From IMG/VR virus record IMGVR_UViG_3300045988_002517: 11,636 bases of DNA; one strand, written 5' to 3'. This DNA comes from a virus. The first letter of the stretch is position 1, and every line of letters begins with the position of its first letter. Positions 1-11,636 of the stretch are shown here, piece after piece. The notes below the pieces were generated by a model. That model worked only from the letters and a program-made list of their open reading frames with translations. It was not told the DNA's origin and searched no databases. A program made the translations under genes and the position numbers.

Positions 1-62
1 GGTACGCTACTGACCCTTTTTTAACGTTTCCCAACGCATTTTTAACATTTGCAAACATTTTG

Positions 63-78
63 TGGCACGGTTTTTGCT
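63..78 (+). promoter_or_regulatory. Sigma-54-type -24/-12 consensus match, copy 1 (inward facing)
   Basis: TGGCACGGTTTTTGCT fits TGGCAC-N5-TTGC-W exactly. The GG and GC dinucleotides have the canonical 12-nt offset. Function as a promoter is not demonstrated. Confidence 0.4.
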
Positions 79-120
79 GGGTCGCCACTTTACCGTTTTT
101 TAACATTTCGCAACCCACTT

Positions 121-136
121 TGGCACGGTTTTTGCT
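121..136 (+). promoter_or_regulatory. Sigma-54-type -24/-12 consensus match, copy 2 (inward facing)
   Basis: Identical 16-mer TGGCACGGTTTTTGCT, preceded by ACTT. Confidence 0.4.
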
Positions 137-168
137 AAGGCACAGATTTAACAAAAGATAACAGACTT

Positions 169-184
169 TGGCACGGTTTTTGTT
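169..184 (+). promoter_or_regulatory. Sigma-54-like motif, copy 3 (degenerate -12: TTGT)
   Basis: TGGCACGGTTTTTGTT. It sits in the loop between 8-bp inverted repeats TAACAAAA (148-155) and TTTTGTTA (178-185). Confidence 0.3.
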
Positions 185-197
185 ATGCGTGTGCGCC

Positions 198-222
198 CGT
201 GAAATTGTTTCACGTGGAACAC
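198..222. promoter_or_regulatory. Nested palindromic operator-like element at the inner edge of ITR-L
   Basis: CGTGAAA-TTG-TTTCACG (7-bp arms) overlaps the 17-mer TGTTTCACGTGGAACAC. Its 16-nt core TGTTTCACGTGGAACA is 14/16 self-complementary around CACGTG. Confidence 0.55.
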
Positions 223-247
223 TGACACACCGCAACACGAAATAAAA

Positions 248-336: not shown

Positions 337-344
337 TATCTTTG
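337..344 (+). promoter_or_regulatory. Bacteroidota-type -7 promoter box (TATCTTTG) for the left early genes
   Basis: TAtcTTTG matches TAnnTTTG. It is part of the 10-mer TATCTTTGCA that recurs at 5617 and 7482. A TTG lies at 315-317 with a 19-bp spacer as a possible -33 element. Confidence 0.55.
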
Positions 345-371: not shown

Positions 372-602
372 ATGAAAGAGTTACTACAACATTTCAGAGA
401 GCAACCGAAAGAAGCAATTAAAGAGGTTGCAATGTGTTTGGCAATTTTTGCCGTGTGTGGTGCTATGTTGTTTTTGTCTGCAATTTTGCAGGGGTGTAGC
501 GTGACACGCCACACCGCAAGCAGTGGAAAGGCAACGATAATAACAACCGATACCACGTACATTTACCACGGCGGTACGGTTAAGTTTCCAAAGACAAAAT
601 AA
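372..602 (+). CDS. Small predicted lipoprotein (76 aa from ATG 372; the track ORF starts at 342)
   Basis: The hydrophobic stretch AMCLAIFAVCGAMLFLSAIL is followed by QGC, a lipobox-like LQGC. The mature part is Thr- and beta-rich. ATG 342 lies inside the predicted -7 box, so 372 is the more likely start. Confidence 0.6.
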   Translation: MKELLQHFREQPKEAIKEVAMCLAIFAVCGAMLFLSAILQGCSVTRHTASSGKATIITTDTTYIYHGGTVKFPKTK

Positions 603-1551: not shown

Positions 1552-2205
1552 ATGACAAAGTTAGGTTTCAAGATTAAATTTACAAAGTCTGTATTTGGTG
1601 CAACCCAACGGGCGAAAATCAAAAAAGAGATTTTGCAAGCCGTGGAAAGCAGCCCCGAATATAGAAAGGAAATTGCGAGGGTTTTCCAAATGGCGAACCG
1701 CCGAATACAGAATATAGAGCAAAGCGGACAACTTTCGCCAGCCGTGCAAGCGTTAAACAAAGGCGATGTAAAAGGGTTTACCAAGTTTTCAATGAAAGGC
1801 GATTGGAACACCCTAAAAATTGAGTACGGCAAGGCGATTTCGTTTTTACGCCAGCCGACCAGTACGGCGCAAGGTGCAAGGCAGTACGGGCAACACCTGC
1901 AACGTATGTACGATTTAACGCCCGATGAGTACAACCTTATGGCGAGAAACCTTCAAGGCAAGTTAAACAGCGTTTCAGACAACGAATTTGTGGAACGGTA
2001 TTTGATGCGGTACAAGGATTTCACGGGCGAAATGGAGCAAAGCGCAAGCGATATAAGCACCCAAATAGAAAGCGAAGCGCAAAGCATATCACGGGCGATT
2101 GATGCAGAGATAGAAAGGCAGGCAAATGAGGTTGCGGACGCAATGGATGATATGCAAAACGATATAGAGCGCATTTTGAGCAACTTTGGCAAATTTGGCT
2201 TATGA
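1552..2205 (+). CDS. Putative terminal protein (protein primer), 217 aa
   Basis: Immediately upstream of, and translationally coupled to, the protein-primed polymerase (ATGA overlap at 2202-2205), as gene 3 is to gene 2 in phi29. It has a basic N-terminus (KIKFTK...RAKIKKE) and a strongly acidic helical C-terminus, matching the DNA-binding and DNA-mimicking priming domain logic of phi29 TP. I could not verify direct sequence similarity. Confidence 0.55.
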   Translation: MTKLGFKIKFTKSVFGATQRAKIKKEILQAVESSPEYRKEIARVFQMANRRIQNIEQSGQLSPAVQALNKGDVKGFTKFSMKGDWNTLKIEYGKAISFLRQPTSTAQGARQYGQHLQRMYDLTPDEYNLMARNLQGKLNSVSDNEFVERYLMRYKDFTGEMEQSASDISTQIESEAQSISRAIDAEIERQANEVADAMDDMQNDIERILSNFGKFGL

Positions 2206-4412
2206 AAAAAATACCTTTTGAGTTACAAGAAAGAATAAACAGCCCGACCGAAATAACAAGCATCCTGCAACGTGCCGTAAACGAAAAGAACATTATCGGA
2301 AACAGCAAAGGCGAAAGGTTTTACAACATACCGTGCGCCTTTGATATTGAAACAACAAGTTTTTACCGTGATACGGACGGACGGGCGTACACATACGAGC
2401 AAATGCAACGTATGCAGGACGGGAACGGGCGCAAGGCGAAATTAGAGAAAGCCGCAATAATGTACGTTTGGCAGTTTGGAATAAACGGATATACGATAAT
2501 GGGGCGCACGTGGGGCGAGTTTGTTACGATGATGCAGGAAATAACAAGCATCCTGCAATTATCCGACAAATTACGCCTTATTGTGTATGTGCATAACCTT
2601 TCTTACGAATTTCAGTTTTTACGCAAATGGTTTGAGTGGCAACGGGTTTTCAGTATTGATTTGCGCAAACCGATTTACGCAATAACAACGGGCAACATTG
2701 AGTTTCGGTGCAGTTACCTACTTTCGGGTTATTCGCTTGCAAAGTTGGGCGAGCAACTTATGAAATACAAGTGTGAAAAAGCCGTTGGCGATTTGGACTA
2801 TCATTTAATAAGACACCACGAAACGCCGCTGACTGATGCGGAAATACATTATTGCATAAACGATATTAAAGTAGTGATGTGCTACATACAAGAACGTATC
2901 GAGGAAAGCAAGGGGATAACGCACATACCGATAACAAAGACGGGGTTTGTGCGCAAGTATTGCCGTGCGCATTGTTTGCGTGAAAAAAGCGATGCAGGAA
3001 AGACCGTACCGAATTGGGATTATGTAAACCTGATGCAGGAACTACAAATTACGGGTATGAATGAATTTAATATGCTGCAACGTGCATTTGCAGGCGGTTT
3101 TACACACGCCAACGCCGAATATACAGACGAAATAATGTATGACGTGGATAGTTACGACTTTACAAGCAGTTACCCGTATGTAATGATAGCGGAAAAATAC
3201 CCGATGTCGCAAGGCGTTGCGATAACGGTCAAAAACATGGCGCAATTTGAGTTTTTAATATCGAAGTATTGTTGCGTGTTCGATATTGAGTTTACCAACA
3301 TATTTGCCAGCGAAACGCAAGACAACCCGATTTCCGCGAGCAAATGTTTTGTGAAAGAAAACCCGTGTGAGAATAACGGGCGCATTGTGGCGGCTTCAAA
3401 AATTGCGCTGACAATTACGGACGTGGATTTTAATATACTCAAGAACTTTTATACGTGGGAAAGTATGCGTGTGGGCGAAATGTATTGTTACAAGAAAGAC
3501 TATTTGCCGACCCCGTTTGTAAAGTCTATCCTACATTTGTACGAAAGCAAGACGAAATTAAAAGGAGTTGAGGGCAAAGAAGTGGAGTATTTGAACTCAA
3601 AGGAGATGCTAAACAGTTGCTACGGTATGAGTGTTACCAACCCTTTGCGTGATGAGTTTACCTATAACGGCGAATGGGATATTAACTCAATGACAGCCGA
3701 ACAAAAGCAGGAACTTTTATACAAGTACAACACCAGCAAGAACCGTTTTTTGTTTTACCCGTGGGGCATTTTCGTAACCGCATACGCACGGCGCAACCTT
3801 TTCACGGGCATACATGAAGCAAAAGACGATTACATTTACAGCGACACCGACAGCATTAAAATAATGAACGGCAAAGCGCATGAAGCGTATTTCAAGGCTT
3901 ATAATATGCAGGTGCAAATGAAATTGCGATCCGCCTGCAAGTACCACGGTTTGCCGTTTTCCCTTTGCGAGCCGCAAACGATAAAAGGCATAACCAAGAC
4001 TTTGGGCGTTTGGGACTTTGAAGGGACTTATACACGGTTTAAGACTTTGGGCGCAAAACGCTACATGGTGCAAGAACCTAACGCACTGAAAGCAAACGGA
4101 CGGGCATACGATTTCAGTTTAACCGTTTCGGGCGTGAACAAAAAAGCCGCCATTCCGTACCTTATTGAAAAGTACGGGGCTGACGGGATATTTGATGCGT
4201 TTACCAACTATTTGGATATACCGCCAGCGGCAACGGGCAAAAACATACATACGTACATAGACTACGAGATACAAGGCGAAATAACCGACTACAAAGGCAG
4301 CACGGCGCACTACAACGAACGCACGGGCGTACATTTAGAGCCGACCGGATACAGCCTTTCCCTTTCGGTTATGTACATAAACTATTTGCGAGGTATCAAA
4401 TTTAAGGACTAA
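2202..4412 (+). CDS. Protein-primed family B DNA polymerase (736 aa)
   Basis: Exo I is FDIETT (D48, E50). Exo II is HNLSYEF (N132, with E136 where Asp is usual). Exo III is YCIND (Y217, D221). The pre-motif is RAFAGGFT. Motif A is DFTSSYPY (D319), motif B is KEMLNSCYG (K467) and motif C is YSDTDS (D548, D550). KxY is AKRY (K619, Y621). Motif spacing leaves room for TPR1/TPR2-type insertions. Confidence 0.95.
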   Translation: MKKIPFELQERINSPTEITSILQRAVNEKNIIGNSKGERFYNIPCAFDIETTSFYRDTDGRAYTYEQMQRMQDGNGRKAKLEKAAIMYVWQFGINGYTIMGRTWGEFVTMMQEITSILQLSDKLRLIVYVHNLSYEFQFLRKWFEWQRVFSIDLRKPIYAITTGNIEFRCSYLLSGYSLAKLGEQLMKYKCEKAVGDLDYHLIRHHETPLTDAEIHYCINDIKVVMCYIQERIEESKGITHIPITKTGFVRKYCRAHCLREKSDAGKTVPNWDYVNLMQELQITGMNEFNMLQRAFAGGFTHANAEYTDEIMYDVDSYDFTSSYPYVMIAEKYPMSQGVAITVKNMAQFEFLISKYCCVFDIEFTNIFASETQDNPISASKCFVKENPCENNGRIVAASKIALTITDVDFNILKNFYTWESMRVGEMYCYKKDYLPTPFVKSILHLYESKTKLKGVEGKEVEYLNSKEMLNSCYGMSVTNPLRDEFTYNGEWDINSMTAEQKQELLYKYNTSKNRFLFYPWGIFVTAYARRNLFTGIHEAKDDYIYSDTDSIKIMNGKAHEAYFKAYNMQVQMKLRSACKYHGLPFSLCEPQTIKGITKTLGVWDFEGTYTRFKTLGAKRYMVQEPNALKANGRAYDFSLTVSGVNKKAAIPYLIEKYGADGIFDAFTNYLDIPPAATGKNIHTYIDYEIQGEITDYKGSTAHYNERTGVHLEPTGYSLSLSVMYINYLRGIKFKD
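2250..2558 (+). repeat. 21-bp perfect direct repeat inside the polymerase gene (2250-2270 and 2538-2558)
   Basis: GAAATAACAAGCATCCTGCAA occurs twice, 288 bp (96 codons) apart and in the same frame, encoding EITSILQ both times. Confidence 0.9.
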
Positions 4413-4424
4413 AATAATAAGAGT

Positions 4425-5555
4425 ATGACAACAAGAAAGACAAAGACAGACAAGCCGAAATTTTACGACTTGAAAGCGATTTTAAGCAAAAACGCCGATT
4501 ATAATGTTATATTTGGCGAACGGTCAAACGGCAAGACTTATGCAGCCTTAAAATATGGTTTGGAAAACTATATCAAGACGGGCAAGCAAATGGCATATAT
4601 CCGCCGTTGGCGTGAGGATTTGAGGGGTAAACGTGCCGAAAGCCTGTTTGCAAACCACACCGCAAACGGGCTTATTGAGGAACTGACAGAGGGCAAATTT
4701 AATGAAGTGTTCTATATGTCTAACAAGTGGTTTTTATCTTACTACGATGCAGAGAAAAACAAGCGGACACCCGACACAACCCCGTTTTGTTACGGGTTTT
4801 GCCTTTCAGAGCAGGAACACGAAAAAAGCAGCAGTTATCCGAATGTTACAACGATTGTGTTTGATGAGTTTTTGACACGGCGGTATTATTTGCCCGATGA
4901 GTTTATGTTGTTTATGAACCTTTTGAGTACGATAATACGCCAGCGCAACGATGTTAAAGTTTTCATGTTAGGCAACACCGTAAACAAGTTTTGCCCGTAC
5001 TTTACTGAAATGGGGTTAAAGCAAGTGCCGTTTATGGAGCAGGGAACAATAGATATTTACCGCTTTGGCGAACACGGCGCAATAGTGGCGGTTGAGTATT
5101 GCAGCACGATAGTACAACACAAAGCCAGCAACAAGTATTTTTGTTTCGATAACCAAAACTTGCAGATGATTACGGGAGGTAAGTGGGAACTTGCAGTATA
5201 TCCGCATTTGCCGTGCAAGTACAAGCCGCAAGATGTGTTGTTTGTGTATTATATCAAGTTTAACGATGTAGTGTTACAAGGCAACATTATACAAGTAGGC
5301 AACGAATGTTTCACGTACATACACGCCAAGACAACCCCGATAAAAGATGAGGAAAACAGCCTTATTTATTCGCTGGAAATGAACGGCAAACCGAACTACA
5401 AACGCAAGTTATTGAGTACGGCAAGTTATGTGGAGCAACAAGTGGCACGGCTTTTCGCAATAGACAAAGTTTTCTACCAAGATAATGAGGTTGGCGAAAT
5501 TGTGCGCAATTATTTAATTACGAGCGCAAAGACAAACATAGTTTCGTTGAAATGA
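4425..5555 (+). CDS. DNA encapsidation (packaging) ATPase, phi29 gp16 type (376 aa)
   Basis: Walker A is FGERSNGKT (G31-T38), the GxRxxGK[ST] form typical of gp16-like ATPases. Walker B is TIVFDEF (D147, E148). The size is similar to gp16. Confidence 0.85.
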   Translation: MTTRKTKTDKPKFYDLKAILSKNADYNVIFGERSNGKTYAALKYGLENYIKTGKQMAYIRRWREDLRGKRAESLFANHTANGLIEELTEGKFNEVFYMSNKWFLSYYDAEKNKRTPDTTPFCYGFCLSEQEHEKSSSYPNVTTIVFDEFLTRRYYLPDEFMLFMNLLSTIIRQRNDVKVFMLGNTVNKFCPYFTEMGLKQVPFMEQGTIDIYRFGEHGAIVAVEYCSTIVQHKASNKYFCFDNQNLQMITGGKWELAVYPHLPCKYKPQDVLFVYYIKFNDVVLQGNIIQVGNECFTYIHAKTTPIKDEENSLIYSLEMNGKPNYKRKLLSTASYVEQQVARLFAIDKVFYQDNEVGEIVRNYLITSAKTNIVSLK

Positions 5556-5565
5556 AAATTACGGG

Positions 5566-5602
5566 CGGTTTGGTGCAAATTTCGTGCCAAACCGACCGTT
5601 TT
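5566..5602 (+). terminator. Intergenic hairpin after the packaging ATPase (11-bp stem including two G-U pairs, 7-nt loop), short T-run
   Basis: CGGTTTGGTGC-AAATTTC-GTGCCAAACCG, then ACCGTTTT. It separates the replication/packaging block from the late block. Confidence 0.45.
5574..5589 (-). promoter_or_regulatory. Perfect sigma-54-type consensus on the minus strand inside the same palindrome
   Basis: The reverse complement of 5574-5589 is TGGCACGAAATTTGCA, which fits TGGCAC-N5-TTGC-A. It faces leftward, antisense to the ATPase gene. Confidence 0.3.
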
Positions 5603-5649: not shown

Positions 5650-5856
5650 ATGGACGCAAATACTATTATTCAAATCATTTCAAGTTTGGGTTTTCCGATT
5701 GTGATGTGCGGCGCATTGTTTTGGTATATGGTGAAACAAAGGCAGACGCACCAAGAAGAAACGGAACACCTAAAAGATACGATTGCGGAAAATACGAAAG
5801 TGTTAGCCGAATTAACAACGCTTATTAAAGTTTTGACCGATGAGAAAGAAAGATAA
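5650..5856 (+). CDS. Small single-pass membrane protein, YvrJ-like; holin candidate (68 aa)
   Basis: One N-terminal transmembrane helix (IISSLGFPIVMCGALFWYMV) is followed by a charged coiled-coil tail. The GFP-plus-helix pattern resembles the YvrJ family as I recall it. It is the first gene of the late block. Confidence 0.5.
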   Translation: MDANTIIQIISSLGFPIVMCGALFWYMVKQRQTHQEETEHLKDTIAENTKVLAELTTLIKVLTDEKER

Positions 5857-6958
5857 CATTTACAAGTTGTACCAAGCGCAAATAAGGGACAAAGACACCG
5901 CCGTAACCGAATTTATTGCAAACACGTTGGCGAAAACTCAAAGTATGTTTGAATATGAGGGTTTGCCCGACAGCATACCGCAAAAGGAATTGGAGCGGCT
6001 TTTGCAGACAACGGGCAACGCCTTTGTTACCAGCGTGGACGGCGTTTTGTATGCGCTTTCGGGCGGCAAAGGCGGCGAACCCGATGTTTACGGACGGGCA
6101 ACGCTTTACACCGTGGCGAACCCTGCAATAAAGTTAAACAAAACCTACGATATTCAGAAAGACGGGGTTTTGATTGAGAATGACAGCAACGGCGAAAGCC
6201 TTTTGCCGCTTATTGGGCGTTATGCGGTTTTATATACTGACGGGCTTATTTCGTTGAACACCGCCAGCATTTTAACCCGTATTACGATGCTTATAAGTGC
6301 ATCCGATGACAAGACAAAACAGAGTGCCGATGAGTTTTTGCGAAAGATACAAGACGGCGAGTTTTCAATTATCGGGGAAAACGCTTTTTTCAAGGGCGTA
6401 AATATGCAGACAGCACCGACCACAAACAGCGTGTATATTACGCAACTTATTGAGTTGGTGCAATACTACAAAGCCAGTATGTACAACGAATTGGGGTTAA
6501 ACGCAAATTATAATATGAAGCGTGAACGGCTCAATTTGGGCGAGGTATCAATGAATGTGGACGTACTTTTGCCGTATGTGGATAATATGCTAAAAGAAAG
6601 ACAAAATGCAGTTGAGAAAATTAACGAAATGTTCGATACCGAAATTTCGGTTAAACTTGCTTCAAGTTGGGGTTTGGAACGGGATAATTACAACGCTTTG
6701 GCGGCTGATTTGGAAACGGCAAAGGAAAACCCCGACCCGACAGACGAACCCGACCCGACAGAGGAAACAACCGAAACAGACGGAAACGGAACGGAAACAG
6801 ACGGAAACGGAACGGAAACAGACGGGAACGATACCGAAACAGAGGAAACAGAAGAAACGAAAGAAACGGAAACGGAAACGGAAACGGACGGTAACGATAC
6901 CGAAACAGAGGAAACAGAAGAAACAGAAGAAAACGAAGAAAACAACGATAAACAATGA
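5840..6958 (+). CDS. Portal / upper collar connector protein, phi29 gp10 type, with an acidic repeat C-terminal extension (372 aa)
   Basis: By-eye alignment to phi29 gp10 gives four matches. MRKKDNIYK matches MARKRSNTYR. FEYEGLPDSIPQKELERLL matches FEWENLPPTINPSFLEKSI. GEPDVYGRATLYTVANP matches GQRDVYNQATVFRAANP. MKRERLNLGEV...AVEKINEMF matches EKKERMVTDEV...ACEKINELY. Confidence 0.9.
   Translation: MRKKDNIYKLYQAQIRDKDTAVTEFIANTLAKTQSMFEYEGLPDSIPQKELERLLQTTGNAFVTSVDGVLYALSGGKGGEPDVYGRATLYTVANPAIKLNKTYDIQKDGVLIENDSNGESLLPLIGRYAVLYTDGLISLNTASILTRITMLISASDDKTKQSADEFLRKIQDGEFSIIGENAFFKGVNMQTAPTTNSVYITQLIELVQYYKASMYNELGLNANYNMKRERLNLGEVSMNVDVLLPYVDNMLKERQNAVEKINEMFDTEISVKLASSWGLERDNYNALAADLETAKENPDPTDEPDPTEETTETDGNGTETDGNGTETDGNDTETEETEETKETETETETDGNDTETEETEETEENEENNDKQ
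6773..6924 (+). repeat. Nested in-frame tandem repeats in the portal 3' region
   Basis: The 21-bp unit GAAACAGACGGAAACGGAACG occurs twice exactly (6773-6793, 6794-6814), with a diverged third copy (6815-6835); each encodes TETDGNG or TETDGND. A 38-nt repeat GACGG(G/T)AACGATACCGAAACAGAGGAAACAGAAGAAAC lies at 6821-6858 and 6887-6924. Confidence 0.9.
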
Positions 6959-7548: not shown

Positions 7549-8736
7549 ATGGAAGTAAAACAGATTTACACGCTTATTAACAGCGTATCGGGTGAAGTGT
7601 TGGGGCGTACTGACATTGTAACCGAGGATTTGACGGGCATTGTGGATTTAGGCACGGAAGTGTTTAACCAAAATGCGGTTGACAATTACGTGAAGTCACT
7701 TGTAAATCATATCGGCAAAGTGATTTTCGTAAACCGACCTTATGCGGGCAAAGTGCCGAGCGTTCTAATGGATGCGTGGGAGTTTGGCAGCGTGTTGGAA
7801 AAAATAAGTGCCGATGTTCCCGAAGCCGAGGTAAACGACACGTGGAACTTGACGGACGGACAGAGTTACGACCAAGATGTATTTCACAAACCGACCGTTA
7901 CCGCAAAGTTTTTCAACTCAAAGGTTACGTTTGAAGTGCCCGTATCAATCACGGAAAGGCAGGTCAAGGAAAGTTTCAGTAACGCCGCCCAACTTAACGG
8001 CTTTATTTCGATGATTTATACATCCGTTGAAAAGAGTATGACTATCAAGGCAGACGCTTTGATTATGCATACAATTAACAACATGATTGCGGAAACCGTG
8101 TTAGCTGATGCGCAAGTGTTTGGAGCAACGGAGGCAGGCGATATGGCAGGAGCAGACCTTGCAAGCGCAAGTACTGCAAGATGTGTGAACCTTTTGAAGT
8201 TGTACAACGATAAAACGGGCGCAAGTCTTACCGCTGCAAAGGCGATAACCGACCCCGATTTTATCCGCTTTGCGTCTTACGTAATGGGTACGTATGCCGA
8301 CCGCCTGCAAAGCATTTCGACCGTGTTCAATGTTGGCGGCAAGGAACGGTTTACGCCGAAAGATATGTTACACGTTGTACTTTTGTCCGACTTTGCAAAG
8401 GCAGCGCAAACCTATCTTTATTCCGACACGTTCAACCGTGGCGATGTGCTTTTGCCGCAAGCCGAAACCGTACCTTTTTGGCAGGGTAGCGGAAAGAACT
8501 ACGAGTTTGCCAACACGGGGCATATCAATGTTAAGGAAAGCGGCGGCAAAGCCGTTAAAATTTCGGGCGTGTTGGGCGTAATGTTCGACCGTGATGCGTT
8601 GGGCGTTTGCAATCTTGACAGACGAGTAACAACGAACTACAACGCAAAGGCAGAGTTTTTCAACAACTATTACAAGTTTGACGCTGGATATTTCAACGAC
8701 ACAAACGAAAACTTTGTAGTATTCTTTATTGAGTAA
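7549..8736 (+). CDS. Major capsid protein (395 aa)
   Basis: Large late ORF with its own promoter box, followed by the strongest terminator in the genome. The N-terminal segment NYVKSLVNHIGKVIFVNR resembles FITSLVDRIGLVVIRQ of phi29 gp8 as I recall it. Its position next to the portal module fits. Confidence 0.75.
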   Translation: MEVKQIYTLINSVSGEVLGRTDIVTEDLTGIVDLGTEVFNQNAVDNYVKSLVNHIGKVIFVNRPYAGKVPSVLMDAWEFGSVLEKISADVPEAEVNDTWNLTDGQSYDQDVFHKPTVTAKFFNSKVTFEVPVSITERQVKESFSNAAQLNGFISMIYTSVEKSMTIKADALIMHTINNMIAETVLADAQVFGATEAGDMAGADLASASTARCVNLLKLYNDKTGASLTAAKAITDPDFIRFASYVMGTYADRLQSISTVFNVGGKERFTPKDMLHVVLLSDFAKAAQTYLYSDTFNRGDVLLPQAETVPFWQGSGKNYEFANTGHINVKESGGKAVKISGVLGVMFDRDALGVCNLDRRVTTNYNAKAEFFNNYYKFDAGYFNDTNENFVVFFIE

Positions 8737-9274: not shown

Positions 9275-10858
9275 ATGGCAGTAATTGTAAATATACCCAA
9301 TGCACACGATGATAACAGCCAATGGAACGAAAGCGGCGGTTATTGGGATATAAACGTAAGAACCGATGACGGGTTTGTATTTCAAGGCGATGTTAAGGCG
9401 GTTTATACCAATACAAGCGGCTACCCGAAAAGCGTTGTTTTGGAGCAAAACGGCGCAAAGGTTTGGGCATTTGGTAAGTTGTCCCAAACCAATGCAAAGA
9501 CGAAAATAACTATCACGGGCGAAACAGCCAGCGAGGGAAACCCCGAACTTAACGTTACGAACAACGTACCCAACACGACAGCCACGGGCGAAAAGTTGGG
9601 CAAGACTTCGGCGAGGGTAACACTAACAGCCGATGAGGGTTTTAAGATAACCAGCGCACAAGTAGGATTTAGCAACGGTTACGGCTACCCTGCAAGCGAG
9701 AATATGACAATAAACGAGGGCGGCAAATCTGCAAGTTGGCAAAACGATGATTGCGAACCCGACAAAGGTGTAACGATAAACGGCGAAACGGGCAAATTTA
9801 CAGAAGGGGTAAGCATTGAACCCAACCTTTCAAATTGTCATGCCGACCCACCGTTACCCGAATTTTTGCAATACGGTGAAACGCTTAACGTAACTATCAA
9901 AGCGAATGAAAACACGGCGTTTGACACGGAACAAAGTACGCCTAATTTTTTCTATTACAACGAAACGGGATACCCTACCAAACAAGATTTAACCGTTTCG
10001 GGCGACAAAAAAACGGCAACGGGAAGCATTGTTTTACAAGACGGTTGGCATAACTTTTCTGTAAATGCGCAAGCGTACCCCGTGGCGGTTGTAGGCGAGC
10101 AGTACGGGGCTATAAACGTGTATTTGGTAACACTTGATGAGTTGGCAGAATTTAGCGGCAAACGGTTTTTCAAGGAAACGGGCAGCGACCCCGAAACGGG
10201 CGCAACGCAATACGAAAACATAGATTTGGGCACATACGTGAACAAAATACGCCGTGTTTACACCAACATAGGTGCAAGCAGCACCGATGTAATACGATGC
10301 GGCAACTACAACACGGGTGTATCTTGCCACCAGCCAGCGCAAGACAAAATAACGCTTGACTTTGGCACGGCGGTAGTACCAGCGCACAATGAGGACAACA
10401 CCGACTACGAAAGCGAAATACAAATCTTTTTGCCGTTTGCAGGCTTTGTAAACCTCAATGCCGATTATGCAGGCAAAACGATAGCTTTGCAGTACGTTAT
10501 AAACGTGGTAACGGGCAACGGGGTTGCGCTTTTGTCCTGCAACGGCGTTGTGTTCCAGGTTGAGGAAACAGAACCGAGCAGCGAAATAATATACCTTTCG
10601 CCAAGCACCCAAGTTAAAACCGTGGGCGGCGATGATTGGAACGAAATGTTATATTACGGGTTAGAACCTTACATTTATTGCAAGTGGTACGAGAGCGCAA
10701 GCAACGGGCGAAACAATGACAGACAAACGGGCATTTTAGGCGATTTCAGAGGGTTTAATGTGTTCGATGATGTTACACCCATACACACCGCCGAAATGCT
10801 GACAGAGGAACAAGAAATGATATACACGGCTTTGTCTGACGGCGTTTATATTGAGTAA
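9275..10858 (+). CDS. Tail protein: three-repeat putative receptor-binding region fused to the gp9-type tail-knob C-terminal region (527 aa)
   Basis: The C-terminal half matches gp9 in two places. [26 protein letters not shown] matches [33 protein letters not shown]...[17 protein letters not shown] matches AFNYVQTKD...NNDLQEIRTIFDNGITL. The N-terminal half has three GYP-centred repeats. It is in the same reading frame as 8816..9268. Confidence 0.7.
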   Translation: [527 protein letters not shown]

Positions 10859-10872
10859 CTGCAAGGCAGGAC

Positions 10873-10913
10873 AAAAAGAAAGGCGGCAACTTGATTGTTA
10901 CCGCCTTTTCTTT
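10873..10913. terminator. Bidirectional intrinsic terminator between the convergent tail gene and the leftward gene
   Basis: Hairpin GGCGGCAAC-TTGATT-GTTACCGCC (one mismatch), flanked by AAAAAGAAA on the left and TTTTCTTT on the right. It therefore reads as stem plus U-tract on both strands. Confidence 0.75.
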
Positions 10914-10930: not shown

Positions 10931-11302
10931 TCACGTGCTTTGCAAGAATGTCAGCACCCGTTTTTCGTTGTATGTGCTTACGGGATAACACGAACAAAAG
11001 GTTTTGAAACGATTTAACAGCCTTTCAGTTAGTATAAAGTCGTATGCTTGATTTTTGCAAGCCTTTTCTAACTCAAATTTGCCGTTTAACTTTTCAACGA
11101 TTGCGGCGTTATCACGATTGAAATATATTTGATTTTCCAACACGCTAACAACCGTTTCCAATGTTTCGGCAAGGCTTTGTAAGTTGGTACGAATTTCGGG
11201 CGCATTTGCCGCCAAAAACTCAACGTGTTTTTTGCTTGTAAGCAAAGTTTCTTGTAACTGATTTAATACTTTCGCATTTAATGCAAATCTTTCGTTTGTC
11301 AT
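10931..11302 (-). CDS. Hypothetical all-helical 123-aa protein; the only leftward gene (right-end early gene candidate)
   Basis: Intact ORF with its own terminator and upstream region reaching into ITR-R. It has no transmembrane segment and no recognised motif. Confidence 0.7.
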   Translation of the reverse strand: MTNERFALNAKVLNQLQETLLTSKKHVEFLAANAPEIRTNLQSLAETLETVVSVLENQIYFNRDNAAIVEKLNGKFELEKACKNQAYDFILTERLLNRFKTFCSCYPVSTYNEKRVLTFLQST

Positions 11303-11333: not shown

Positions 11334-11364
11334 CGAAGGTAAGCATTTGTTTTGAACGTGCAAG
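11334..11364 (-). promoter_or_regulatory. Weak candidate promoter for the leftward gene
   Basis: On the minus strand, cTTG (reverse complement of 11361-11364), then a 19-bp spacer, then TACCTTCG (reverse complement of 11334-11341; one mismatch to TAnnTTTG). It lies 32 nt upstream of the ATG. Confidence 0.25.
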
Positions 11365-11407: not shown

Positions 11408-11414
11408 TTTAACA

Positions 11415-11439
11415 GTGTTCCACGTGAAACAATTTCACG
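11415..11439. promoter_or_regulatory. Mirror copy of the palindromic operator-like element in ITR-R
   Basis: GTGTTCCACGTGAAACAATTTCACG is the reverse complement of 198-222. It lies upstream of the leftward gene 11302..10931. Confidence 0.55.
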
Positions 11440-11452
11440 GGCGCACACGCAT

Positions 11453-11574
11453 AACAAAAACCGTGCCAAAGTCTGTTATCTTTTGTTAAATCTGTGCCTT
11501 AGCAAAAACCGTGCCAAAGTGGGTTGCGAAATGTTAAAAAACGGTAAAGTGGCGACCCAGCAAAAACCGTGCCA
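11453..11574 (-). promoter_or_regulatory. Mirror array of the three sigma-54-like motifs in ITR-R, facing leftward into the genome
   Basis: Reverse complements of 11559-11574, 11501-11516 and 11453-11468 give TGGCACGGTTTTTGCT twice and TGGCACGGTTTTTGTT once. Confidence 0.4.
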
Positions 11575-11636
11575 CAAAATGTTTGCAAATGTTAAAAATG
11601 CGTTGGGAAACGTTAAAAAAGGGTCAGTAGCGTACC

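Follow-up and report, generated by a model that had tools for sequence, protein, structure and literature searches.

Inverted terminal repeats of a phi29-like virus carry inward-facing sites that match Bacteroidota sigma-54 promoters

Both ends of the virus record IMGVR_UViG_3300045988_002517, an 11,636-nucleotide (nt) stretch referred to here as the window, carry three inward-facing motifs within a perfect inverted terminal repeat (ITR). The window comprises nearly the whole linear genome of a phi29-like podovirus, and the motifs match promoters of sigma-54 (RpoN), including details specific to the Bacteroidota. The comparisons described below indicate that sigma-54 is probably the reader of these sites, whatever role they have. 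The more specific proposal, that they are promoters from which the host sigma-54 RNA polymerase (RNAP) fires inward, upstream of separate sigma-A promoters, is one that we favor at somewhat better than even confidence. The original prediction of sigma-54 promoters in the ITRs is thereby strengthened by the Bacteroidota-type match and by promoter-like use of the same motif elsewhere, although three of its parts are revised.

Sigma-54-type sites in the terminal repeats

Sites 1 and 2 share the sequence TGGCACGGTTTTTGCT and lie at positions 63–78 and 121–136 on the plus strand, with site 1 beginning at nt 66 from the true terminus. Site 3 (TGGCACGGTTTTTGTT, 169–184, plus strand) has one mismatch, TTGT in place of the consensus TTGC. 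The mirror copies occupy the minus strand of the right ITR at 11559–11574, 11501–11516, and 11453–11468, the last again with one mismatch. These positions, and the exact or TTGT status of each copy, are as originally predicted. With up to one mismatch allowed, TGGCAC-N5-TTGCW has seven matches in the window versus 0.56 expected, and none of 200 shuffled sequences reaches seven. The GG and TTG(C) elements are separated by the fixed 10-nt GG-to-G spacing of the sigma-54 consensus. Scoring with a position weight matrix (PWM), which had been suggested as a check, was performed with a classical sigma-54 PWM, for which 96 promoters were drawn from the compilations of Barrios and EcoCyc. Sites 1, 2, and 3 score 18.4, 20.1, and 15.8 bits, around the median of 16.0 bits for the validated reference promoters. 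In shuffled genomes, sites that reach 16 bits number 0.035 per genome.

The motif had been described as a 16-nt unit, but the unit that is actually repeated is about 40 nt long and includes TTTAAC 22 nt upstream of each site. These hexamers lie on the plus strand at 41–46, 99–104, and 147–152, upstream of sites 1, 2, and 3, respectively, with an orphan copy at 20–25. Among related genomes, TTTAAC occupies positions −21 to −16 in approximately 93% of 145 contexts. The proposed alternative that ACTTTGGCACGG is the conserved unit does not hold, as it is not the core: the sequence in copy 1 is TTGTGGCACGG, and TGGCA(C)G-N-TTTTTG is the block that stays invariant.

For comparison, sigma-54-type promoters with mapped starts were taken from two Bacteroidota, Flavobacterium psychrophilum and Bacteroides thetaiotaomicron. 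In F. psychrophilum, the motif SM4 was assigned to sigma-54, one SM4 promoter was verified by mutagenesis, and the motif precedes groES, dnaK, grpE, lon, clpB, htpG, and skp (PMC9723704). The remFG operon of the same organism has a sigma-54 promoter plus a second promoter (PMC9723704). In the 11 SM4 sequences that were retrieved, G14 is invariant (11 of 11) and a T precedes TGG in 10, while position 15 is A in four, C in two, G in one, and T in four. The B. thetaiotaomicron table from differential RNA sequencing (PMC7366714 supplement) contains five promoters of SM4-like shape. These are BT_0565, encoding a heat-shock protein (TTTGGCATAAGGTTTGCA), BT_1000 (TTTGGCACAGGATTTGAA), BT_0779 (TTTGGCATCTGCTTTGCT), BT_0837, the promoter of the ATP-dependent protease gene lon (TTTGGCATTGTTTTTGTG), and BT_1111 (TTTGGCATGTAATTTGTA). 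The upstream sequence listed for each stops at motif position 27/28, and its last base was taken as the mapped start.

Across the 16 promoters with mapped transcription start sites, position 15 is A in five, C in four, G in one, and T in six. Judged from these sequences, the Bacteroidota sigma-54 form is TTTGGCA(C/T)-N4-TTTG-N, with no conserved C at −12. The phage core, TTTGGCACG-S-TTTTTG-Y, fits this form even where it departs from that of the Proteobacteria. The Bacteroidota promoters have T at positions 0 and −1 and a TTTG block, and the phage sites have TTTGGCAC and an invariant T11–G14. A profile made from the 16 promoters gives 16.1 bits for site 1, 16.5 bits for site 2, and 19.7 bits for site 3. 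All three scores fall inside the leave-one-out range of the reference promoters (8.6–21.8 bits), a comparison in which the phylum of the phage host is itself inferred.

The promoter type, the GC content, and a published suggestion point to a Bacteroidales host. The suggestion comes from a survey that proposed such a host for a 12,148-bp member of this phage group (PMC11476376). The gene rpoN is present in 27 of 27 Bacteroidia genus representatives (PMC12316311, table S1). Binning of the phage contigs into metagenome-assembled genomes was inconsistent as a guide to the host, returning Prevotella, Scatosoma, Melainabacteria, and others.

Conservation of the sites and their occurrence in unrelated phages

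IMG/VR holds more than 400 related contigs, and public protein data contain approximately 8,000 clusters of the polymerase. According to how closely their polymerases match that of the window (percent identity), the relatives form five clades: A, which contains the window, B (68%; GC content 37%), C (76%), D (about 80%), and E (84%). A set of 150 unique genome ends was assembled by protein similarity, without use of the motif. At least one inward site of at least 10 bits is present at 144 of these ends, and four clades carry sites. Ends have one to four copies, and one contig has at least six. All 287 sites face inward, toward the early genes, and none faces outward. The first T of the outermost TGGCAC is at nt 66 from the terminus in 137 of the 144 ends and at nt 65 in the other seven.

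Conservation was measured over 145 unique 70-nt contexts. TGGCA is present in 100%, C6 in 94%, G7 in 93%, T9–T13 in 97–100%, and G14 in 99%; position 8 is G or C, and position 15 is C in 57% and T in 41%. The length of the T-run, and hence the spacing, is preserved in approximately 225 of 228 instances. Variation over the 287 sites consists of C6 to T, G7 to A or T, a free position 8, and a single C4 to T change, and by this comparison the tolerated variation is what sigma-54 tolerates. Conservation of the GG and GC dinucleotides relative to the flanks had been offered as a check; the GG is fixed within the invariant TGGCA, and the C at −12 is kept in the 57% given above.

The innermost copies of clade A have TTGT, and the four copies of clade D are all TTGT or TTGA, none with the C at −12. 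Relatives that keep TGGCACGG but not TTGC had been named as evidence that would count against sigma-54. Such relatives exist in clade D. The test itself is invalid, however, because the mapped Bacteroidota sigma-54 promoters do not conserve that C. Taken together, the invariant T-run and the 43% of contexts with another base at position 15 initially suggested a different reader, a view that was revised in light of the published Bacteroidota start-site maps. Between clades, polymerase identity is 67–84% and terminal protein identity 55–75%, and the flanks of the motif have diverged while its core is invariant. Preservation of the core despite this divergence of the replication proteins fits a conserved host reader.

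The sequence pattern also bears on whether the motif is a Bacteroidota sigma-A element (−33 TTTG and −7 TAnnTTTG) or a neutral tandem repeat in a young ITR, either of which we consider very improbable. TTTG and TTTTTGC do resemble pieces of the sigma-A boxes, and at BT_4363 of B. thetaiotaomicron a TTTGGCAC string arises from a TAccTTTG box. However, no phage copy has TA ahead of TTTG, and the TTTG blocks are 8 nt apart rather than approximately 19–21. Genuine boxes of this class are found elsewhere in the window, where identical TATCTTTGC sequences at 337, 5617, and 7482 stand 25–59 nt ahead of gene starts; the primary sigma factor of Bacteroidota uses TAnnTTTG as its −7 box (PMC7366714). Neutrality of the motif is contradicted by the 145 contexts from four clades, in which its flanks average about 0.5 bit while the core is near 2 bits.

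Clade C is the exception among the five. Its one complete genome (L276) has TTTAACACGTGGGTAC at the position of the first site and no high-scoring site in the ITR. Within nt 1–140 of this genome, AA replaces the GG, the T-run has disappeared, and a CACGTG has arisen, while the neighboring GGGTCGC and TTTAAC are kept. The genome retains the terminal protein, the polymerase, and the early proteins of 118 and 70 amino acids (aa). All core early proteins are present in clade C, and no early gene was found that co-varies with the presence of the site. Sites are likewise absent from Astrid, Phanie, DU_PP_III, Entb_47, and Firmicutes-type contigs, all of which have sigma-70-type promoters, and from Astrithrvirus relatives. 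High-scoring sites are limited to clades with Bacteroidota-type TAnnTTTG promoters; proteobacterial relatives instead have sigma-70 promoters in or beside their ITRs, as in DU_PP_III, where a good sigma-70 promoter lies at 189–217 inside a 219-nt ITR.

An exact 15-mer scan of IMG/VR also picked up contigs without protein similarity to the phi29-like family. Most hold a single match at chance level, but several carry many copies with shared flanks (TAGTTTGGCACGGTTTTTGTAATAT). These are the 217-kb contig IMGVR_UViG_3300021399_000099 (loci L109, L129, and L143), a 30-kb contig (L141), a 13-kb contig (L081), and L165. Their core is TTTGGCACG(G/A)T(T/A)TTTGTAATAT. Applied to these loci, the Bacteroidota profile detects further, non-identical sites such as TTTGGCACGATATTTGTACAGT, and 17 sites of at least 17 bits occur in 52.6 kb of unrelated loci. 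For 10 of the 17, an open reading frame (ORF) that spans at least 60 codons begins, at its first ATG, 27–90 nt downstream on the same strand, compared with a null expectation of 9.4% (P = 5e-7). Among the downstream genes are those for NAMPT-like (NAD salvage) and isochorismatase-family proteins and a DNA methylase. In a 335-kb contig (L117:10714–10735), TTTGGCACGGTTTTTGTT stands 75 nt before an HSP70/DnaK gene. In the 13-kb contig, a single gene is preceded by two sites separated by 96 nt, a precedent for tandem copies. Within 25 nt upstream of the gene-proximal copies in unrelated phages, no conserved element was found.

The sequence found in the ITRs, T-run included, is thus placed like a promoter in genomes that share no proteins with the window, which points to a host reader. 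These placements suggest that, in some phages, promoters of the sigma-54 type form a common class that has gone undescribed. The 17 sites also make such promoters less rare than the original prediction, which called them very unusual in phage DNA, had supposed. The core TTTGGCACG(G/A)T(T/A)TTTGT is the same in the large contigs and the phi29-like phages, which also have tandem pairs in common. They differ in that the sites of the large contigs lie 27–90 nt before start codons genome-wide, whereas the motif here is confined to the ITRs.

A different sequence-specific protein, such as a phage early protein, the complex of terminal protein and polymerase, or another host factor, could use the sites as iterons for a replication origin or packaging, in which case the likeness to sigma-54 would be coincidental. 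The geometry lends itself to this idea: the sites lie within the ITR of a protein-primed replicon, the first is fixed at the inner border of a conserved terminal module, and they belong to a composite unit with TTTAAC at a fixed distance. They are also repeated in one orientation at a fixed place relative to the terminus, in a copy number that varies as in iteron arrays, and other small phi29-like phages have short direct repeats of their own in their ITRs. G7 and T9–T10 are, moreover, held more tightly than sigma-54 profiles require. Auxiliary origin sites are known from the adenovirus ITR, which has NFI and Oct-1 sites, and phi29 has p6 nucleoprotein sites. The phage sites resemble both in their fixed distance from the terminus and in their location in or next to the terminal repeat of a protein-primed replicon. 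Unlike those sites, they are absent from one clade and from all non-Bacteroidota relatives despite the same replication genes.

Origin iterons would be expected wherever the replication proteins are kept, and this expectation fails in the clade C genome and in the Astrithrvirus relatives, which have this replication machinery but infect other hosts. Clade C keeps all conserved early proteins without the site, which leaves no co-varying candidate for a binder. A match of 16–20 bits to two independent sigma-54 profiles, down to phylum-specific details, would be very unlikely in a site unrelated to sigma-54. Typical phage DNA-binding proteins recognize palindromes or direct repeats, whereas this site is bipartite and asymmetric, with a single free position at its center. 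The identical motif is gene-proximal in unrelated phages that share no proteins with this family. We regard recognition by a different protein as unlikely.

Genome organization and neighboring elements

Pfam matches identify a protein-primed family B DNA polymerase (2202–4412), a Gp16-type packaging ATPase (4425–5555), a phi29-type connector (5840–6958), and a phi29-like major capsid protein (7549–8736). All genes of the window point rightward except a 123-aa gene on the minus strand (10931–11302). The nearest cultured relatives are Astrithrvirus-like phages of Proteobacteria, with approximately 60% capsid identity. The left ITR (1–224, plus strand) is 100% complementary to the right ITR (11413–11636, minus strand), a perfect repeat of 224 nt. 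In contigs of relatives, an Illumina/Nextera adapter is fused to the phage end (...GATCT|AAAGGTAC...), as in L049, L088, L100, L220, L246, L255, L256, and L322. Because these junctions give 5'-AAAGGTAC as the true terminus, the window starts 3 nt inside the true end, with AAA absent at both ends. The terminus AAAGGTAC is similar to the AAAGTA of phi29, and its terminal AAA is compatible with sliding-back initiation.

Several further features were noted. An exact 248-nt tandem duplication (598–845 and 846–1093, with a partial third copy from 1094) doubles a 70-aa early ORF (628–840 and 876–1088) together with its upstream region. By a crude count of start motifs in clade A, this ORF is present once in 41 of 69 genomes, absent from 28 of 69, and never present twice. 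The 3' part of the connector gene contains, at 6748–6942, imperfect 21-nt tandem repeats (AACGGAAACAGACGG...), and many public contigs of approximately 6.1–6.8 kb seem to stop near these repeats, where assemblies possibly break. The ORF at 5650–5856 has a match among the PHROG holin families. No Peptidase_M15_3 domain was detected in the window, although relatives encode an endolysin of this type at their right end, on the minus strand. The conserved 118-aa early protein has close homologues only, none of them named, and the small early proteins have no family annotation. A search for prohead RNA or other relevant RNA gave no Rfam match at E ≤ 1.

Each end has a sigma-A-type promoter nearer to its first gene than the sigma-54-type sites. 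On the left, a Bacteroidota −7 box, TATCTTTG (337–344, plus strand), lies 27 nt before the first gene (372–602, plus strand), whose ATG is at 372 and whose 76-aa product has a lipobox-like LQGC. Inward transcription from the left end would reach this coding sequence first. On the right, the sigma-A-like −7 box TACCTTCG (11334–11341, minus strand) is upstream of the sole leftward gene, the target of inward transcription from that end. A terminator-like hairpin with a 12-bp stem (10879–10908) separates the leftward gene from the convergent tail gene. A sigma-70 promoter scan of the window found nothing in intergenic regions.

At the inner ITR edge is the near-palindrome GTTTCACGTGGAAC (207–220), with a second copy at 249–262 and a mirror at 11417–11430. 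In relatives, one to three copies precede the early sigma-A promoters in the inner part of the ITR, and clades B and D have the element directly before the late promoter as well, at the junction of the ATPase and late genes. It is kept in clade C, although the sigma-54-type site is absent there. The near-palindrome is a separate element, probably the operator of a regulator. A GGCAC/GTGCC hairpin downstream of the clade B site was considered as a further element and set aside, its spacing being variable and the hairpin weak or absent in clade A.

Partial copies of the motif inside the genome had been cited as possible binding sites. The 13-mer GACTTTGGCACGG, placed at 10365–10376, is in fact at 10358–10370; it is coding (D-F-G-T) and occurs in just 12 of 69 clade A genomes. 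The shorter TGGCACGG, placed at 5446–5453, is at 5443–5450 and is also coding, and its 17 hits versus 9.1 expected include the six ITR copies, leaving no enrichment outside the ITR. Neither is retained as an extra site. A fourth exact consensus match had been overlooked: TGGCACGAAATTTGCA at 5574–5589 on the minus strand, which scores 17.4 bits with the Bacteroidota PWM. It lies inside a stem-loop (5566–5594; CGGTTTGGTGCAAATTTCGTGCCAAACCG, then GTTTT) between the ATPase gene and the late sigma-A promoter. The match is confined to clade A, where the majority variant is CGGCAC and the A/G variation preserves stem pairing; in a few clade A genomes, a longer loop breaks the sigma-54 spacing. Other clades have different hairpins at this position, including the CACGTG palindrome in clades B and D. 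With a terminator-like hairpin, restriction to clade A, variation that keeps pairing, and loop-length variants, this match is not taken as an independent sigma-54 promoter. It is most simply the terminator hairpin after the early operon, and its membership in the system of ITR sites is uncertain.

Proposed inward transcription from the genome ends

In the mechanism that we favor, host sigma-54 holoenzyme would bind the ITR sites and be activated by a host enhancer-binding ATPase, which would have to be supplied by the host because the phage encodes none. Inward transcription would start 13–14 nt after the G of TTTG, at approximately 89–90, 147–148, and 195–196 for sites 1–3 on the left and at approximately 11547–11548, 11489–11490, and 11441–11442 for the mirrors of sites 1–3 on the right. 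At each end, the transcripts would traverse the remaining ITR and then the sigma-A promoter region before reaching the early genes, and the sigma-54 starts would form a tandem arrangement with the sigma-A promoter downstream. The sites are upstream of transcription units and co-oriented with them, with leaders that would span 166–310 nt and contain the sigma-A promoter. The genes under sigma-54 control in Bacteroidota include those for chaperones, proteases, and envelope stress (groES, dnaK, lon, clpB), some of which have a high basal level of expression. Early phage expression may thus be plugged into the host stress regulon, and the match suggests that the phage may borrow a stress-response sigma factor of its host.

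Several observations weigh against this proposal. The sites are 166–310 nt from the first start codons, and a sigma-A promoter is nearer to each gene. Because of these separate and closer promoters, sigma-54 is not needed for early expression; the earlier view that early transcription from both ends is tied to a sigma-54 signal is therefore too simple, as each end also has a sigma-A-type promoter. The site is dispensable, given that a complete clade C relative has lost it. As originally predicted, no bacterial enhancer-binding protein (bEBP) is encoded in the window; Pfam and PHROGs show just the Gp16 packaging ATPase. No enhancer or upstream activating sequence was recognized, TTTAAC-N8-AAC and the CACGTG palindromes being candidates. 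G7 and T9–T10 are 93–99% conserved in the phage sites versus 0.1–0.3 bit of information in the host profiles and 0.0–0.3 bit in the classical one, so that some further constraint acts. The fixed first site at nt 66 and a copy number from one to at least six would also suit an origin-linked or titrating site. Together, the excess conservation, the fixed position, the copy variation, the lack of an enhancer, and the distance to the genes keep two alternatives alive: the different DNA-binding protein discussed above and a silent use of sigma-54.

For silent use, the sites would bind host sigma-54 or its holoenzyme mainly without transcribing, either titrating it away from the chaperone, protease, and envelope-stress regulon or serving at the terminal origin as an accessory factor, in the manner of the NFI and Oct-1 sites of adenovirus ITRs, or as a roadblock. 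In favor of this possibility, closed complexes of sigma-54 remain stable but silent until an activator acts on them. The sites are near-optimal with an invariant core, are present in tandem with no gene directly downstream, and begin at a fixed distance from the terminus. No upstream activating sequence or phage bEBP was found, and the early genes have sigma-A promoters of their own. However, the idea is purely inferential, and the same motif is placed like an ordinary promoter in unrelated contigs. The single copy per end in clade B would be a weak sponge, and clade C manages without a site. We consider silent binding quite unlikely. If it were true, replicating phage genomes would draw off sigma-54 and thereby dampen the host stress regulon just described.

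At the level of sequence, the sites fit the definition of a sigma-54 promoter. Compared with known Bacteroidota sigma-54 promoters (SM4 and the hsp and lon promoters of B. thetaiotaomicron), the phage sites have the same TTTGGCA(C/T)-N4-TTTG form, the same fixed spacing, and the same unconserved base in place of the −12 C, with scores within the host range and predicted starts 13–14 nt past the G of TTTG. They differ in their location in the ITRs of a lytic phage, in their one to at least six tandem copies, in their distance from the gene with a sigma-A promoter between, and in their tighter G7 and T9–T10.

The early promoters C2 and A1 of phi29 lie near the genome ends. Like them and the sigma-70 promoter of DU_PP_III, the sites described here point inward and lie beside the origin of a linear genome with protein-primed replication, within its terminal repeat or close to it. 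Those promoters are read by the primary sigma factor, however, whereas these sites match the activator-dependent sigma-54 class. Inward end promoters of phi29-like genomes are thus known, and those of the sigma-54 class appear to be new there as far as literature searches show. The searched literature describes no sigma-54-class promoters in the early region of any lytic phage.

If host sigma-54 does transcribe from these sites, a very abundant group of tiny gut phages would wire the first steps of infection to the host sigma-54 system, and infection would be sensitive to the stress state of the host. An activator-dependent sigma factor would then join the few host sigma factors known to be exploited by lytic phages. 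The presence of the motif before many genes in unrelated large phage contigs suggests that this strategy is widespread and undescribed.

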